Shown one piece after another: positions 3,601-63,987 of a DNA stretch of 64,000 bases; within the stretch, counting starts at the first letter, position 1; each line of letters opens with the position of its first letter. A program made the translations under genes and the position numbers. The notes beneath the pieces were generated by a model. It saw nothing but the letters and a program-made list of their open reading frames with translations. It was not told the DNA's origin and made no database searches. The stretch is taken from positions 32,001-96,000 of IMG/VR virus record IMGVR_UViG_3300005096_000058; one strand, written 5' to 3'. The stretch comes from a virus.

Positions 3601-4416
3601 TCAGCGCAGGAACGCTGCGATCTTCGCTAGGCCTTTCGCCATCCCGCGCTCACCTTCGGCCACCATGTCATCCACGTCTTCTGCCGTCATCCCAAACTCA
3701 AGACCGCTGTGTTTGGTCTTGAGGTACACCACGCGTGCGAAAGCGGCGTCCTCGATGTGCTCCCGGTCAGCGGCGTTGATCATGTCCTCCATCGTGCCCG
3801 ACACACGCACGAGCTTGTTCTTGGGCTTGGGACGCGGATCGCCCTCGCCTGGTGAAAGGAGGCTCAACCCGATCACGGGCGTCTGTTTAGAGCTACGCAT
3901 GATCCAACCTTCATAATCCAGAAGAAAGTTTCCAGACACGCCCCCATCTTCGTAATAGTCCCCGTTGATCTGCACCATGTCGAAAATGGGAAGCGACATG
4001 GATGCGCGAACATGCAGCGGTAGGTCCCCTGAAATCCAGACGCGGTTTTCACCTCGGGTCCAATTGTGTGTGCTGATGTGCAGAGGAAGGGACGCGTCCT
4101 GGTAGCTCTTGGGTAAATTGTCCCGGGCGAATTTGAGCAACAAATCACCCTTGATCACCCCTGAGGTGCCATCAACAAACGGCCAGAATGGGAAGGCCCG
4201 TGGGTCGAGCATTGTGCTGGGTAACGCCGTCCTAGTCAGCTCGTGCAGCCGGTCCAGCGGTTGACCACTTGCGAGCATCCCGGCCGCGATCGCGCCAGCC
4301 GAAGTGCCTAACGCCTCTTCGATCTTGAAGCCGCTCTTTGCGAGTTCCTTGAACGCACCGATATAGACGGGGTAGCGGGTACCCCCACCACGGAGGACGA
4401 TCTTGATGCTTGGCAT
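3601..4416 (-). CDS. Patatin-like phospholipase
   Basis: GGGTR oxyanion loop, GTSAG nucleophile elbow and catalytic DGG all present in order. Confidence 0.92.
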   Translation of the reverse strand: MPSIKIVLRGGGTRYPVYIGAFKELAKSGFKIEEALGTSAGAIAAGMLASGQPLDRLHELTRTALPSTMLDPRAFPFWPFVDGTSGVIKGDLLLKFARDNLPKSYQDASLPLHISTHNWTRGENRVWISGDLPLHVRASMSLPIFDMVQINGDYYEDGGVSGNFLLDYEGWIMRSSKQTPVIGLSLLSPGEGDPRPKPKNKLVRVSGTMEDMINAADREHIEDAAFARVVYLKTKHSGLEFGMTAEDVDDMVAEGERGMAKGLAKIAAFLR

Positions 4417-4653
4417 TTAGGCCGCCTGTGCGCGGATAAAGTCAACAAGTTGGCGCGCGTGAGGAAGGCTGACGCCCTCAATAGGAAAGTCGTCGTCCGG
4501 TCGTGCCTCGACCGCGTCGGCGAGCGCGATAAGATCCACCGCGTCACTCTCAGCAGCCACGTCCATACCCGCAATTGGGTTGAGGCGACGGCAGGCCGCG
4601 TTGATCAATTTCGTGAGCGTAGGATCGAAAACATTTTTCATGACGAGAAACAT
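4417..4653 (-). CDS. Hypothetical protein
   Basis: 78-aa ORF whose stop abuts the patatin ATG. Confidence 0.55.
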   Translation of the reverse strand: MFLVMKNVFDPTLTKLINAACRRLNPIAGMDVAAESDAVDLIALADAVEARPDDDFPIEGVSLPHARQLVDFIRAQAA

Positions 4654-5894
4654 CCTTGCGGCGTGGCCGCTCCGAGATCGTTCGTGCCGGCTGCCGCGAG
4701 GAGCATGGTTGTGCCTGGGTTTGCGCCAACGACGATTTCAGATCCGGCCGGCGTGACCAATGCCCAGCGCGCCGACAGAATTTCACTCATCCTCCCGCCG
4801 TCCACAAGTTCGACAAGGTTTCCCGTGACTGAACCAAGCATGCCGACCGTAGGGCTCAAGCTGTCAACGACGTGGCCCTTGGTTCGGATCATGCGCACGC
4901 CATTTGCAGAAATGCCATTCCCGCCGATACCAACTGTTGTATTTGGTCCGCAATCAAGGCCCACACCAATGTCAATATCGACTTGGTTGAAGAATCGGAT
5001 ATTGGTGTTTGGCTGAATGATGACTGTGTTGTCGAGCAACGATCGGGCGATGTTCGGATAGTTTGATCCGCCGACCAAGAAATTATTTGAAAACGAGGCA
5101 CCAAGGTGAAAGCCGAAGATGTCGCAGTCGACTGTTGTGAAAGAGCCATTTAGCGGTCCATCGTAGTAACCGCCTAACGAGCACTTTTCAAAGCGCCAAT
5201 TGCCCGTAGAATAAACACCGCCATCGAATGCAAGCCCACTAATCCTCGACGACGCGTCAACTGTTTTGATGAAGCCGAAATAATTTGGACCGCCGAGAAT
5301 GCCAGGATTCGTTTCTATCGATCCCCCTATGTAATCTGCGGGAATGCTCAATTGCGTCACATGGGCGTAGACGGCCGTAGGAACCGACACAGTCGTGCCC
5401 GCGACGAGAGTCAAAGACGGCCCGATTGAGCCCTTGCAGATAGCTGGGAACGACTGGACGGTGAACCCGAATGCGGAAAGATCGATGTCGGCCCAATGCG
5501 TCCCATCAATAAAATCAGGATGCGCACCAAAGTTTGGATCGGTGTGTTGGGCATGTCGGTCAGGCTCAACCGTGAAGGATGGCACCGCGTTAGTGACCAC
5601 TGGCGTCGATCGATCTGCGTAGACGGCGAGCACGCCTCCGACACCAGACTTGGGGTGGTGCACGGGAAGCGTGTACGGACCGGCGCCAACGCATTGAATT
5701 TCATAGAGCCCAACGTAGTTTTCAGGCACGCGGTCGACGGCTTCTTTCAGAGTCACGAGCGGCGTTGCAATGTCGCCGACTGCGGCGTCGCTGCCCGTCG
5801 CCGCATCGACGTACTGCCGTGTGGTGGTCGCGCGGTAGAGCGGGCGCAGTTGCGCCGGGTCTCTGATCGATCCGTTTGCAATTAGCATCGCCAC
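4638..5894 (-). CDS. Putative fibre/spike protein (beta-helix-like), partial paralogue of 5896..8184
   Basis: YVDAATGSD...PLVTLKEAV tailspike-like N-terminus; GTG start at 5894 with the same TAACGTGGC junction as the upstream gene. Confidence 0.6.
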   Translation of the reverse strand: MAMLIANGSIRDPAQLRPLYRATTTRQYVDAATGSDAAVGDIATPLVTLKEAVDRVPENYVGLYEIQCVGAGPYTLPVHHPKSGVGGVLAVYADRSTPVVTNAVPSFTVEPDRHAQHTDPNFGAHPDFIDGTHWADIDLSAFGFTVQSFPAICKGSIGPSLTLVAGTTVSVPTAVYAHVTQLSIPADYIGGSIETNPGILGGPNYFGFIKTVDASSRISGLAFDGGVYSTGNWRFEKCSLGGYYDGPLNGSFTTVDCDIFGFHLGASFSNNFLVGGSNYPNIARSLLDNTVIIQPNTNIRFFNQVDIDIGVGLDCGPNTTVGIGGNGISANGVRMIRTKGHVVDSLSPTVGMLGSVTGNLVELVDGGRMSEILSARWALVTPAGSEIVVGANPGTTMLLAAAGTNDLGAATPQGCFSS

Positions 5895-17723: not shown

Positions 17724-17889
17724 GTTTCGTCTCCAGAAATAGAAAAAGGCGAAGTCCAGACGAAGCAGACTGCTTCCTCCGTGACCTCGCCCCTACTCGA
17801 ACCCTAAAAGCGGTTCCTAATCGGGCCTCACGCTGACGCGCTCGGTTGTGCTTCAGATTTATAGGTCCGTCTGGACTGAGTCAAGGAGC

Positions 17890-35940: not shown

Positions 35941-38900
35941 CTACCACTCGAAATCCTTGTTGCCGAGTCCAGGTAGATGCCTCCACGCCAGCTCGTCTGG
36001 ATGGAGGAGTTCATCAGGGACCAAAGCGGCTTCACTCGCTGAACGTGTGGCCTTGGGTCCTACGAGGTTTTCCACTGTGAGGTTGGCTTGCAGGAACTCC
36101 TTGATCGCGTCTTTGGGCGCGTCCTCCAGCTCTACGTCGCCTCCCCAATCTTTGAGCAAGTCCCCCACGGGGTCGTTACCCAACGCCGCGCTGTCCGGTT
36201 CAGCCATTTGCTGCTCAAGAAGTTCGTCCAGACTGAGGTCATCGTCGTCACCGAAAGAAAAGCCGAAGGCGCCAGCGCGCACAGCGCAGTTGGCAATCCA
36301 GAACGCCATCACGGTGTCATCGTGCGAACCCACCCCCTGGAGCTTGCCCTCCAGCCAAGTGAAGTGACGCATCTCCTTGATCCACTCGTCACCCTTTTCG
36401 ACGCTTTCGCGATCGCCGCGGGGGATGCGCACCTTGGCGTTTTCGAGGAGCACGCGCAGCTGGGGCACTCCACCTTCCAAGGTGTTCTTGTTCATGGTGT
36501 GCGTGTTGCCTGTGGGCTGGCTGTTGTTGTTCTTCTTGGTTCCAGACGTCACGAACTTGAAGATCGGCAGATCGGTTTCGCGGATGAGCTCGTCACCAAA
36601 GATCCGCTGCATCTGGTTCGACTCCAGATAGATGAGATCAGCGTCGTACTTTTGGCCAAGAGCGTTGATCAGCCCCTTTTGTTGGTTGTAGGCCAGGCCG
36701 TGGTGACGCTGGATGTCGATCACCCAGCGGTTGCGAAACTGGTCAACGCCAAGCACGAACCCGACGGTGTAATCGGCGCCCGTCGAGGTGGAGATTGCGA
36801 AGTCGAACCCGATGTAGAAACTCGTGATGCCGAGCTCTTCGTAATAGGCACGAGGCTGGCCCATCTTCACGCCGATTTGCTCGACGGGAGCCCCCTGGAA
36901 CAGCTTGCCGGGGAACAGGCTCATCTCATCGCTGATTGGCTCGCACATGAACTCGCGCGTGAAGCGCACGCTCTTGATCTCGATCTCACGCTCTTCCAGC
37001 GATTCGACGACGATGCCTTGTTCCAGATAGCGAAGACGTTCAGCTTTGGTCGCGCAGAAGCGCTCGGGCCACAAGGCTTTGCCTTCCGCATCACGGGCGG
37101 CATATTTACGGTAGCAATAACGTTTGTTCGTCGACAGGTCCGCGTAGAGGTCAGCCGCATGGAATGGCGTGCCGACGACGATGACCTGGCCACCGGGGTT
37201 CACCATGTTGGTGATCGCCGTGTAGAAATAGTCGATGTGCTTGGTGCGCACGAGCTCGGAGTACGCGTCCTCGTCGTTCAGCCCGTCGTCGACAACAATC
37301 CAATCCGGGTGGGCGCCGCGAATCTTGGTGCCGTAGCCTCGTGCATAGATTTTGTGACCGTTGGCCAACGTGATTTGCGTCTTGCTCCAGTTGCGCGCTT
37401 TGTTCTTTGGGTTGAGAAATGCGAGCTTCGGGTTGGACTCAATCTCCTCCTTGATGTCCTCCAAAATGCGCACGGCCTGGTCTTGGGTCGCCGAGAAAAT
37501 GTAGCCGCGGCCCCCGGGCAGGTACGCTGCTTTCCAGATGGGGTAGGCGAAATCAAAATAAAACGTGTTGTGGTTGATGACGTCGTCGGAGACGTAGTTC
37601 ACCAAACCAGGGACGTGCATCGACCAAGTTTCTTGCTCCCCAATATCCTCGATAGCGATGATCTCATCCCAAAGCACATCTGCGTCAGCAAGAGCCAACA
37701 GCTCGCTGTTGTTTTCCGCAACTGCGATCGCACGCAGCTTGGCTCGCGTCGGTTCGTACTGTGGGGTGGGGCGGGGATGTCCGCGGTCCCGAAACCAAGT
37801 CTCAGAATGTTCGACCTGCTCCCACACATCCCGAGGAAAGCGATCAATGGCTGGGCCATGTGGGGGATCTTTGGCCTCCTGCATCTGGACCAGGGCCGCC
37901 AATTGCGTTGCCTTGCCCCCTCGCAAACTAATCTGCGCGGCAAGGCGCAAGACGTCTTGCCCCCTGACTGTGAGACGCCACGACCAATGATCTTTCGCGA
38001 GGTATTTGCCCTTTTTACGGCCCAGCACAGCCACCACGCCTAAGCGCACAAGGAGGTGTTGCACGTCTCGTAGGAGTTGCTCCGAGACAGAATAAAACTC
38101 GACTGCGCCGCCCCCAGACAAGGCACAAGTACCATCGGCTTCCAGATACCCCGCAAGGAATTCAGCGATCGACGTGTCCGAGGCTGTGAACAACTCTTTA
38201 GGCACGCGCTTTTCATGCGCTGTGTGCCCCATGAGGCCAAGCGCTCGCATACGCTGCACGGGGCCACCCTCGCGAGCATAGTTGGCGTGCAGTCCATAAG
38301 TGATCGGGTCCGCGGGCCTGCGGGTGAGCCCCCACCCCAACCGAGCCGCTTCCTGTTTGACTGCCCCCAACGTAACGGCATCGGCCACGGTGATCGTGAC
38401 CCCGGTTCCGGTAAGGCCGCCATCGCCAATCAACATCCCTAGAAGCCAAGCGTCATCCACCGTTTTGCTGGCGCTCGTTTGTAGCCTGCGGGGGACACCG
38501 ATGCGCTGGCCCACCACCAGTTGATCAGCACGGAGCCAACGATCCAGCAACCTCAACGGATGATTTTCCGTGACGCGTACGCGGCGGCCCGTCTTCGTGG
38601 TGATCTCTAGGCAGCGCTTGTGCCCGTTGCGCCGGGACGCGGGCGCATAGGTGGGCACGAGTTTGTGCGTGTCCTCGTCGTAAGCGATCACCTCGCCGCC
38701 TGACCAAGACTCGATCGGGATGCGGCGGCCATCAGCCGCATTTATGAGCGCACCCTCAACCTGGCACTTCCCATGATTCCGGGGGGCTAGCACGCAAATG
38801 CGATCCTGCTCCGCGACGAGATCATCCCATTCCATGTGATGATCTGCGACGACAAAATGGCCGTTGTAGGGAGCTTGTATTGGTCCAGACAGGAACTCAC

Positions 38901-39144
38901 TGGCGAAAAACGCGCAGCTGTTCCTCATCATCTCTAAGGTGAACGCGTCCCACGCGTCATCGCCGCCTTCCACGGCGGCGTGTGCACGTTTCTCCACGTC
39001 GTTCTCATCCCACTCGGGGACTGAAGCACTGAAGAGGTCACGAAAGCCTGCGGTGGTCACAAGGCAAAGACTGGCGGCGATCGTCTGGAAAGTCCAGACG
39101 TCAGTGCACTGTGTCGAGCATACCCGCCTTGCGCATAGACTCAC
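35941..39144 (-). CDS. terL: Terminase large subunit (intein-containing; true start may be GTG near 39060)
   Basis: APRNHGK|T Walker A, IVVDD Walker B, VVGTP, IGFDFA nuclease motif, HDDTVMA. Confidence 0.95.
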   Translation of the reverse strand: MSLCARRVCSTQCTDVWTFQTIAASLCLVTTAGFRDLFSASVPEWDENDVEKRAHAAVEGGDDAWDAFTLEMMRNSCAFFASEFLSGPIQAPYNGHFVVADHHMEWDDLVAEQDRICVLAPRNHGKCQVEGALINAADGRRIPIESWSGGEVIAYDEDTHKLVPTYAPASRRNGHKRCLEITTKTGRRVRVTENHPLRLLDRWLRADQLVVGQRIGVPRRLQTSASKTVDDAWLLGMLIGDGGLTGTGVTITVADAVTLGAVKQEAARLGWGLTRRPADPITYGLHANYAREGGPVQRMRALGLMGHTAHEKRVPKELFTASDTSIAEFLAGYLEADGTCALSGGGAVEFYSVSEQLLRDVQHLLVRLGVVAVLGRKKGKYLAKDHWSWRLTVRGQDVLRLAAQISLRGGKATQLAALVQMQEAKDPPHGPAIDRFPRDVWEQVEHSETWFRDRGHPRPTPQYEPTRAKLRAIAVAENNSELLALADADVLWDEIIAIEDIGEQETWSMHVPGLVNYVSDDVINHNTFYFDFAYPIWKAAYLPGGRGYIFSATQDQAVRILEDIKEEIESNPKLAFLNPKNKARNWSKTQITLANGHKIYARGYGTKIRGAHPDWIVVDDGLNDEDAYSELVRTKHIDYFYTAITNMVNPGGQVIVVGTPFHAADLYADLSTNKRYCYRKYAARDAEGKALWPERFCATKAERLRYLEQGIVVESLEEREIEIKSVRFTREFMCEPISDEMSLFPGKLFQGAPVEQIGVKMGQPRAYYEELGITSFYIGFDFAISTSTGADYTVGFVLGVDQFRNRWVIDIQRHHGLAYNQQKGLINALGQKYDADLIYLESNQMQRIFGDELIRETDLPIFKFVTSGTKKNNNSQPTGNTHTMNKNTLEGGVPQLRVLLENAKVRIPRGDRESVEKGDEWIKEMRHFTWLEGKLQGVGSHDDTVMAFWIANCAVRAGAFGFSFGDDDDLSLDELLEQQMAEPDSAALGNDPVGDLLKDWGGDVELEDAPKDAIKEFLQANLTVENLVGPKATRSASEAALVPDELLHPDELAWRHLPGLGNKDFEW
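37567..38766 (-). mobile_element. Intein with LAGLIDADG homing endonuclease in the terminase Walker A motif (400 aa)
   Basis: HGK|CQVEG...VTENHP...LGMLIGDG...LAGYLEADG...VINHN|TFY. Confidence 0.93.
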
Positions 39145-39376
39145 GCATGCGCTTGGCTACCGATCGCGCTTGAGCCTGGATCGTGGCTATATGCTTTGCG
39201 CTGATCTCAGACTCTTCGGCTGATTTGCGCCAGAACGCAGCGTTGGCCTCTGCTGCGAGAAGCTGAGCCTGCACATTGGGTTTCACCCCCTCGTGCTCGA
39301 ACTCAACAGAAAGCCGCACGAGGTCAACGCTGAGATGACCTCCGAGTCCTTGTTGTTCTCGGCCGTGTTGAGACAT
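39101..39376 (-). CDS. Hypothetical protein directly upstream of terL
   Basis: ATG at 39376 lies just downstream of a terminator; no terminase small-subunit motif recognised. Confidence 0.4.
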   Translation of the reverse strand: MSQHGREQQGLGGHLSVDLVRLSVEFEHEGVKPNVQAQLLAAEANAAFWRKSAEESEISAKHIATIQAQARSVAKRMRESMRKAGMLDTVH

Positions 39377-39392
39377 TGACCGGATCGTAACG

Positions 39393-39422
39393 AAAAAAGG
39401 CCGCAAGCGTAAACTTGCGACC
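39393..39422 (-). terminator. Intrinsic terminator
   Basis: GGTCGCAAG-TTTACG-CTTGCGGCC followed by TTTTTT. Confidence 0.8.
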
Positions 39423-39775
39423 CCTCCCCTCATGACCGGGTTTTACACCCCGGGGGAAAGCCCCGAAAGGCTATTGAAGCGGTGTGGGGGTACAAGCCCC
39501 ATCCTACTCCACCCGGGGCCTGCCCCCGGGCGCTCTGCGGCTTATCCACGGCCCGCGGACCCAAAGGCCCAAACACCGCACCAAGCCCTCAGCCCCGTCG
39601 TCTTTGGCAGGGCTCGCCGTTGCCGGCTCACCCCTCGATGGGACTGACCCTCACTAACCGGCCTCTATTTTGAGAGGATCGGCCAACTTTTGTTGTCCCC
39701 CGGGTCGGGGTGTTGCTATCCCCTCTAAGAGGGGGTCCCGTCAGCGAGTCGACTCGCTGCACAACGAGATTGTTG
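39393..39775 (-). ncRNA. Candidate structured non-coding RNA or late-operon leader
   Basis: No credible ORF; a run of about seven hairpins ending in a terminator. Confidence 0.45.
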
Positions 39776-39806
39776 TCTCAAACAACCGTGGTTGCTGTCA
39801 ACACAA

Positions 39807-42294: not shown

Positions 42295-42333
42295 ATTATA
42301 CACGCAGGCATATAGCTGTCAAGACATATGTCT
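42295..42333 (-). promoter_or_regulatory. Sigma70-type promoter with palindromic operator
   Basis: TTGACA-N16-TATAAT; AGACATATGTCT at 42322-42333. Confidence 0.85.
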
Positions 42334-63204: not shown

Positions 63205-63987
63205 TCACTCCCCAAATGGTTGCGTGGCGTCGAGATCGTCTAGCCAGCCTGGGTATTGTTCGTAAGAGGGGAGCAGCGCTGCCTGTTTCGCGTGTCTTTT
63301 GCGCGGAAAACTTCCTCGTCTTGCCGTGAACTTGTTGCGCTCGGATGCCACACGGGCGTGATCAACACACGCCCGGAAGTTGCCCGCGTGCAGGGCTGCA
63401 CAGAGGTCATGATCATCCTCGATCACCCGGTCGAACTCGGTCCATGCGATGCCAATCATGCCGGCCCAATGTGCATCCGAGCCCCCGGTGATGGGTAGGC
63501 CCATTCGTTGGGCCGCTCCGCGTGCGAGAGCGTTTGTCTCGGGCGATCGGGTTTCCACCTGCCCGTTGTAGCCCTCGATAGCAGCGAGCCCCTGAAGGCC
63601 TGTAACGTGGTCCTTGGCTGCGCGAGCGTAGCCTTTGTAAGGGTGGGGCACGACGCAGGCGCCGCCCATGGCGTTCACCTCGTCAATAACGGCCTGGATG
63701 TTGGGGTACATGCCCCAGGCCAGCGCGGGGACGGGGACGTCGATCCCGAAAATGAGCAGGTGGTTCATCTCCGTGCTGTACTCAACACCTACGAACGCGC
63801 GCACGCCCACCGCCTCCAGGGCCTCAGCCACCCGGTGCACCTCCGCATTGTCCCCCACCGTGTTGGTGTGGTGGTCCGTGAGACAAAGCCCATCGAGGCC
63901 CGCAGCCTTAGCCGCGTGGGCAATGTCGACGGGGGAGCTCATGCCGTCGGAGCCCTTTGTGTGGCTGTGCATATCGAGCTTGAACAT
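63205..63987 (-). CDS. PHP-domain phosphoesterase
   Basis: DMHSHT, TDHH, GVE, PHP, IEGYNG, GSDAH. Confidence 0.9.
   Translation of the reverse strand: MFKLDMHSHTKGSDGMSSPVDIAHAAKAAGLDGLCLTDHHTNTVGDNAEVHRVAEALEAVGVRAFVGVEYSTEMNHLLIFGIDVPVPALAWGMYPNIQAVIDEVNAMGGACVVPHPYKGYARAAKDHVTGLQGLAAIEGYNGQVETRSPETNALARGAAQRMGLPITGGSDAHWAGMIGIAWTEFDRVIEDDHDLCAALHAGNFRACVDHARVASERNKFTARRGSFPRKRHAKQAALLPSYEQYPGWLDDLDATQPFGE

Follow-up and report, generated by a model that had tools for sequence, protein, structure and literature searches.

In phage lambda, the late promoter pR', the 6S leader RNA and the terminator tR' are arranged in series, with a promoter-proximal leader and a terminator placed before a long late operon on a single strand, and read-through of the terminator is Q-dependent. 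The lambda leader is ~194 nt in length and is not a conserved multi-helix RNA; its promoter has a good -10 and a sigma-dependent pause, and Q is encoded immediately upstream. The lambda cos site is located just upstream of the terminase genes. To our knowledge, RNA elements that govern transcription read-through alone are very few, comprising put, EAR, and conAn2. The put RNA consists of two stem-loops (~65-70 nt) and acts on early operons. The large GOLLD and ROOL RNAs (~580-800 nt) are widespread and usually lie beside tRNA genes.

The HK022 put element is a nascent RNA structure that lies downstream of a promoter and ahead of terminators and acts in cis: it renders RNA polymerase resistant to termination with no need for a protein (PMC9378689). 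The conAn2 element is a 260-600-nt intergenic RNA that heads the pLS20-like conjugation operon and overrides terminators in cis; it needs a small protein for long-range action, and its sequence is poorly conserved between relatives (PMC8191782). GOLLD (RF01998) and ROOL (RF03087) are large multi-helix RNAs of phages and prophages that have their own ends and an unknown function (10.1101/2024.12.08.627333).

The element described here is very probably a genuine structured RNA. Its best explanation, offered tentatively from the sequence, is a promoter-leader-terminator module that would gate the late operon by read-through, in the manner of put or conAn2. It is found in an uncultured phage represented by a 110,147-bp IMG/VR contig, bases 32001-96000 of which form the window, the 64,000-nt stretch of DNA analyzed here. 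The contig has a GC content of 58.5%, and its minus strand carries essentially all genes. The best GenBank phage match to its TerL shares 30% identity, indicating that there is no close cultured phage. The 91-bp terminal repeat of the contig falls inside a 33-bp tandem repeat. It probably arose from assembly overlap within a repetitive gene rather than from a genuine genome end, and is therefore uninformative on the true ends of the genome. A TerL-guided search of IMG/VR returned many distant relatives and one close one, IMGVR_UViG_3300037247_001314 (L002, 106.8 kb, TerL 89% identical), which carries a homologous element.

On the minus (gene) strand, window positions 39801-39393 begin at a TTGACA box, contain about ten hairpins, and finish with an intrinsic terminator, all within a gap of ~400 nt; the predicted RNA is ~385-400 nt long with about ten helices. 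Small early genes lie upstream, behind consensus sigma70 promoters such as TTGACA-16-TATAAT at 42322-42295. Downstream are a 91-aa ORF, the intein-bearing terL, and then the head genes; terL, the database form of which is 1039 aa, starts the late, structural gene block. The element thus sits exactly at the early/late junction. Its parts and the genes that follow it are:

39796-39801, minus strand: -35-like box TTGACA (TTGACG in L002, counterpart at 4649-4654).
39771-39783, minus strand: invariant 13-mer GTTTGAGACAACA, 13/13 identical in L002, 11-12 nt past the -35-like box.
39657-39770, minus strand: variable 5' domain, drawn from single-sequence folds of both copies and a table of helices.
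39507-39656, minus strand: conserved 150-nt core of three arms and 40 pairs, the same fold being predicted separately for each sequence.
39431-39506, minus strand: 3' domain, drawn from the folds of both copies and the table of helices.
39393-39422, minus strand: intrinsic terminator, a 9-10-bp GC-rich stem (39422-39399) and U6 (39398-39393), dG ~-15 kcal/mol.
39101-39376, minus strand: first downstream ORF, 91 aa, with its ATG at 39376, 16 nt past the T run.
35941-39060, minus strand: terL (large terminase) with a LAGLIDADG intein (Pfam Terminase_6N/6C, Intein_splicing, LAGLIDADG_3).

Several of these features had been picked out in an earlier note on this DNA. The TTGACA box at 39801-39796 without a clear -10, the 18-bp palindrome at 39759-39742 on the minus strand, and the terminator with its T6 tract are all present. 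The note also placed packaging genes 16 nt beyond the element; the spacing to the ATG at 39376 stands, but the first ORF there encodes a protein confined to this clade, and terL comes after it. Other apparent gaps in the window are occupied by abutting 80-90-aa ORFs, and it is plausible that the element is the window's largest ORF-free gap. A coding region was ruled out by stops in all three frames, by the lack of codon periodicity (substitutions relative to the homologue fall 57/55/50 by codon phase), and by indels of 1, 3, 4, 6, 12, and 22 nt, not all of which are multiples of three. A replication origin at the element was likewise rejected, since the GC-skew profile is flat.

Folding energies set the element apart from the rest of the genome. 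First, its minimum free energy (MFE) is -205.6 kcal/mol (z -5.1) and none of 100 shuffles folds as well, contrary to the concern in the earlier note that folding might be no better than that of shuffled sequence; a dinucleotide-shuffle control gives z -6.2. Second, 20 other 422-nt windows from the same strand of the genome have a mean z of -0.92 (sd 1.09, minimum -2.84), placing the element ~4.8 sd outside the genome's own background. Third, the stability is strand-specific: sense and antisense z-scores are -5.1 and -3.3 for the whole element in the window, -3.0 and -0.2 for the whole L002 homologue, -2.8 and 0.0 for the 150-nt core in the window, and -3.3 and -0.95 for the core in L002. The fold model is rich in G-U pairs, which on the complementary strand become A-C mismatches. 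Because the extra stability belongs largely to the sense strand and to G-U pairs, the element is taken to act as a transcript and not as a cruciform or a protein-binding DNA site.

The L002 homologue occupies positions 4649-5078 at the same early/late junction, in the order early genes, element, homologue of the 91-aa ORF, and terL. Conservation is patchy, at 73% overall, and is concentrated in invariant blocks: TTGAC, the 13-mer, GGGTCAGTC, GAGGGGTGAG, CGCAGAGCGC, AAACCCGGT.ATGAGG, and the 3' half of the terminator with its U tract. Within these blocks, conservation equals or exceeds that of the adjoining early proteins. The two copies, folded independently, adopt the same architecture. In the core alignment, 40/40 pairs are standard in both sequences, with 10 changed on both sides and 9 on one, in a consensus structure built from the same two sequences that were used to score covariation; when the 3' partners are slid by 1-3 columns as a control, pairing falls to 38-49% and double changes to 0-1. 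A hand-made table of the helices outside the core, two of which fall in regions not alignable by sequence, lists 18 unchanged pairs, 7 one-side changes, 11 both-side changes, and 3 broken pairs. A stricter full-length test, which scores the MFE pairs of one sequence against the substitutions of the other, yields p 0.01-0.03. With two sequences, phylogeny-aware covariation statistics do not apply. The check for homologues and covariation upstream of terL proposed in the earlier note thus produced one homologue in which the core pairs are kept with compensation.

These comparisons also bear on whether the locus has any function at all. A GC-rich spacer with incidental hairpins, closed by an ordinary early-operon terminator, could account for part of the data: only two sequences are available, high GC favors hairpins, and the full-length single-sequence MFE-pair test is just modestly significant. 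Such a spacer would not be expected to fall so far beyond the folding background of its genome, to fold asymmetrically between strands, to show double compensation in a quarter of its core pairs with none broken, or to be conserved in blocks at or above the level of neighboring early proteins, and this explanation is improbable.

A packaging-initiation site (cos or pac), read as double-stranded DNA by the terminase, is very hard to credit for related reasons. Its appeal lies in the position just upstream of the terminase region, as for lambda cos, and the uninformative contig ends leave the genome termini out of the argument. However, base pairs of RNA type, many of them G-U, are conserved for the gene strand alone; when the core is read from the opposite strand, its folding does not exceed that of shuffled sequence. 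The substitutions are compensatory and do not preserve sequence blocks, the element ends in a transcription terminator, and phages with similar TerL proteins lack it. The 18-bp palindrome is not conserved either, as L002 holds two hairpins in its place. The strand-specific pairing speaks against a site made of DNA alone; a DNA site that overlaps the RNA may exist. The earlier note had weighed a novel ncRNA, a late-operon leader whose terminator is read through, and a packaging site; the strand-specific fold, the compensatory changes in one homologue, and the real terminator at the early/late junction bear out the two RNA readings alike, but not the third.

The architecture can be followed part by part. 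In the 5' domain, helix P1 (39769-39764 with 39741-39736) encloses the palindromic hairpin, and its pairs are UCUCGU/ACGGGA in the window versus UCCCGU/GCGGGG in the relative. Further hairpins at 39734-39720, 39710-39698, and 39683-39657 diverge in sequence and match their L002 counterparts in position and shape. In arm 1 of the core, P6 (39647-39636 with 39600-39589) surrounds P7 (39634-39624 with 39619-39609). The inner part of this arm, GGGGU-GA-GCCG-GCAA-CGGC-GA-GCCCU, contains a tandem G-A internal loop and a GCAA (GNRA) tetraloop at 39623-39620, and a C-G pair of its stem in the window is U-A in L002. Arm 2 is forked (P8/P9, 39587-39539), with a UUUG tip in the window and GCAA in L002, and arm 3 is the hairpin 39532-39510, CCCGGGG-GCAGG-CCCCGGG. 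The 3' domain comprises a hairpin at 39500-39487, a conserved ACCGC, a UUCG-loop hairpin at 39472-39459 (other sequence, same shape in L002), a CCGGG/CCCGG helix at 39453-39436, whose loop holds an additional hairpin in L002, and a conserved AAACCCGGU.AUGAGG. Among several alternative long-range pairings are those between 39530-39514 and 39465-39449, and between GCGGUGU and ACACCGC. Most of the hairpins proposed from the window sequence were recovered (~39735-39720, 39684-39657, 39530-39512, 39500-39487, 39472-39459, and 39453-39436), but the one at 39591-39614 is not kept in the homologue, and nested helices at 39647-39589 and 39634-39609 are found instead.

The terminator consists of a GC-rich hairpin directly before a U tract on the transcribed strand, as expected of an intrinsic terminator; counting this one, the gene strand carries about three clean terminators in the entire 110-kb genome. 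Its 3' half, U tract, and following CGUU are 18/18 identical in L002; the top of the stem differs and still pairs. A conserved AUGAGG lies 10 nt before this stem, and in both phages 27 nt separate the AUG (39433 in the window) from the stem's 3' half even though internal indels occur, so that the same frame passes through the stem; in the window, this frame runs into the 91-aa ORF. A ribosome starting at AUG 39433 might thus cross the stem and block the hairpin, making the element a translation-coupled attenuator. However, this AUG has no Shine-Dalgarno sequence ahead of it, the two phages encode different peptides at the covarying part of the stem, the frame in L002 finishes within an unrelated 52-aa ORF overlapping another gene, and retention of the frame has a 1-in-3 chance, all of which renders this attenuator highly improbable.

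No described RNA family accounts for the fold. None of the 4227 models of Rfam 15 (including GOLLD, ROOL, riboswitches, ribozymes, RNase P, tmRNA, and T-box) matches the element at its gathering threshold; the top-scoring ones, at 19 bits where 45-66 would be needed, are ctRNA models matched in a terminator-like way. At gathering thresholds, Rfam finds nothing in the whole window, and nothing comes near threshold at the L002 locus. A tRNA or tmRNA was ruled out by ARAGORN, which finds none; the Rfam search suggested in the earlier note and ARAGORN together agree with its remark that no tRNA, tmRNA, RNase P, or SRP signature was recognized. The structured RNA is new as a family, with two phages known to carry it. 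Unlike GOLLD and ROOL, it matches neither of their models and has no nearby tRNA.

Searches beyond these two phages support a narrow distribution. The element has no blastn match among GenBank phages, and IMG/VR scans with four conserved-block patterns returned the L002 contig alone. The core covariance model, R1, has 0 matches in three complete 110-kb relatives and 0 in 46 terL-related loci, a set that does not extend to TerL relatives at 65-67% identity, which are known as proteins only. A metagenome scan with a loose two-block pattern gave 120 chance matches, none fitting R1, and a pattern scan of genome contigs gave 10 matches, none genuine (an Anaerolineales repeat, a T-box leader, and others). 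In relatives with TerL ~55-62% identical, coding sequence lies upstream of terL, in most cases without a terminator there. It follows that the element was added in one very small lineage, within a region that varies. In a published catalogue of IMG/VR structured RNAs, at least 3 distinct copies were required and models were at most 151 nt, so this two-copy element would not be in it (PMC10690425). Uncultured phage groups carry lineage-specific structured RNAs, which catalogues with a requirement of at least 3 copies and a ~150-nt limit would miss (PMC10690425).

The repeat encountered in the genome-contig scan is shared by four contigs of one Anaerolineales MAG (L174, L177, L179, and L183) as GAGGGGTGAAGGGGTGAGGG.GAGCGCTGC...AAACGTTTATCCCGAAT.CACGTT. 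It resembles a family of intergenic repeats and has no relation to the phage RNA.

The preferred reading, a read-through gate on the late operon, draws on the position of the terminator, which stops 16 nt short of the first late-block ORF. Between 30 and 48 kb, the only sigma70-like promoters are at 42322 and 46870, both upstream of the element; a promoter scan from the terminator to 30 kb finds no sigma70-like site. With no recognizable promoter past the terminator, RNA polymerase would, as judged from sequence, have to cross it in order to reach terL and the head genes. In its default state, the module would halt transcription and release the folded RNA. Late expression would require read-through of the terminator, and the folded leader would be the cis-acting part of the switch, either rendering polymerase termination-resistant by itself, as put and conAn2 do, or offering a phage factor a place to load. 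A further possibility is that the terminated RNA persists as a stable product. The element would then occupy the point where all late transcription of a 110-kb phage must pass, and may represent a new RNA-based late switch.

Comparison with the known systems reveals both likenesses and differences. As at lambda pR'-tR', a terminator lies between a putative promoter and the first late ORF. Unlike lambda, the locus combines a 400-nt covarying fold with neither a -10 nor a Q protein of the PF06530 family, and no sigma70 promoter with a -10 and a promoter-proximal pause element was found. At the distance of 16-18 nt from TTGACA, the sequence reads AGACAA or GACAAC, neither acceptable as a -10 box, and the promoter scan does not call the TTGACA at 39796-39801. 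The invariant 13-mer could mark where the RNA starts at its 5' end, or it could be recognized by a phage transcription factor; its candidacy as a recurring late-promoter motif was dismissed, as it has a single copy in the window. PF06530, the only Q family searched, has no match in the 110-kb genome, and the ORFs upstream of the element, examined for Q, have no Pfam or PHROG match. No sigma r2 domain was recognized in the genome, and the phage RNA polymerase family PF00940 has no match, but control genomes are equally blank. A Pfam scan of 30 early ORFs identified HTH regulators, methyltransferases, MazG, and PHP only, and no transcription factor of known antitermination type.

The put RNA provides a model for how the leader could act, but the element is about six times larger, has about ten helices, stands at a late operon, and bears no detectable similarity to put. 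It resembles conAn2 in its size, its position at the head of a long single-strand operon, and the presence of a small protein gene nearby. Unlike this element, conAn2 comes from Gram-positive plasmids and has no terminator of its own; ConAn1 lies upstream of conAn2, whereas the co-restricted small ORF lies downstream of the RNA here.

A second locus of the same phage has a comparable layout:

17743-17884, minus strand: second promoter-leader-terminator module, with TTGACT-15-TATAAA, a ~105-nt leader, and a very strong terminator of -30.6 kcal/mol plus T5.

A spacing of 19 nt separates the end of its terminator from the GTG start of the 280-aa ORF that opens the head block. The leader contains a nearly invariant stretch, GGCCCGATTAGGAACCG..AGGGTTCGAGTAGGGG, and the module is conserved in L002 with covariation at the top of the stem. 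Beyond the terminator tail, no motif is common to both leader modules. As this second terminator module stands ahead of head genes, terminators before late blocks recur in this phage. This second module may encode an sRNA, or it may act as another read-through gate.

The points that speak against gating by the element are the missing -10, the lack of a recognized Q or sigma factor, the lack of a conserved antiterminator pairing with the 5' strand of the terminator (a 7-bp candidate exists in the window alone), and its absence from relatives. Each of these would fit equally well with a stand-alone RNA. It is possible, if rather unlikely, that the element is an accessory "moron", a trans-acting RNA gene that brings its own promoter and terminator. 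Its folded product would then have targets in the host or the phage, or would assemble into a particle, as proposed for GOLLD and ROOL; the terminator would simply mark where the gene stops, and the late genes would be expressed through leakage or by another route. The multi-domain fold with its GNRA tetraloops and tandem G-A loops is typical of compact RNAs, and the 13-mer and the terminator, that is, both ends, are its most conserved parts. The element is lineage-specific, lies in a variable spot, and is flanked by ORFs that differ between the two phages, and relatives without it manage late expression. L002 has ~1.7 kb of additional ORFs upstream, and one more ORF, of 70 aa, separates its terminator from the 91-aa ORF; these suit an accessory RNA gene as well. 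The second module, too, may be a ~105-nt sRNA gene. Furthermore, a perfect 10-bp direct repeat, GATCCGGTCA, flanks the element at 39839-39830 and 39386-39377 on the minus strand, 453 nt apart, and could be an insertion or recombination scar, but ~0.2 such repeats are expected by chance per 700 nt, and it is not seen in L002. Against an independent RNA gene, a terminator positioned 16 nt ahead of the opening late ORF, and followed by no recognizable promoter, cannot be neutral for late transcription. In addition, no target or partner was identified for a trans-acting product, and it would lack similarity to GOLLD, ROOL, or any other Rfam family as well as a neighboring tRNA.

The 91-aa protein encoded just beyond the terminator is as restricted as the RNA. 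The ORF shares 51% identity with L002:5316-5594, and these are its only two members among 5.8 billion proteins; it belongs to no Pfam or PHROG family and has no tblastn match among GenBank phages. An AlphaFold model (pLDDT 70) depicts a plain three-helix bundle, and the ORF has no Shine-Dalgarno sequence. Since both are confined to the same two phages, the protein and the structured RNA may work together. A bolder form of the gating hypothesis, put forward with considerable doubt, is that the fold represents a new kind of large cis-acting RNA antiterminator, perhaps acting with the 91-aa protein. The RNA would load onto the polymerase during its own synthesis and let the enzyme pass the element's terminator and a strong one 21 kb downstream. 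If true, a ~38-kb late operon would be switched by RNA structure and not by a Q- or N-type protein.

At 39384-39413 on the minus strand, overlapping the terminator, is a weak promoter-like pair, with TTTACG in the terminator loop, 18 nt, TACGAT, 7 nt, and the ATG at 39376. This pair, which is not kept in L002, could yield a near-leaderless mRNA for the 91-aa ORF. In this way it also speaks against gating at the terminator.

The surroundings of terL vary among more distant phages. In the 110-kb relatives L014 and L031, whose TerL proteins are ~55-60% identical, a PHP-domain gene lies directly upstream of terL (3706-4574 and 3668-4394, respectively), and in L014 it follows a consensus-like TTGACA...TATTAT promoter. 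The PHP gene of the window is instead located at 63205-63987, 24 kb upstream, and the early region thus appears to be placed differently in this lineage.
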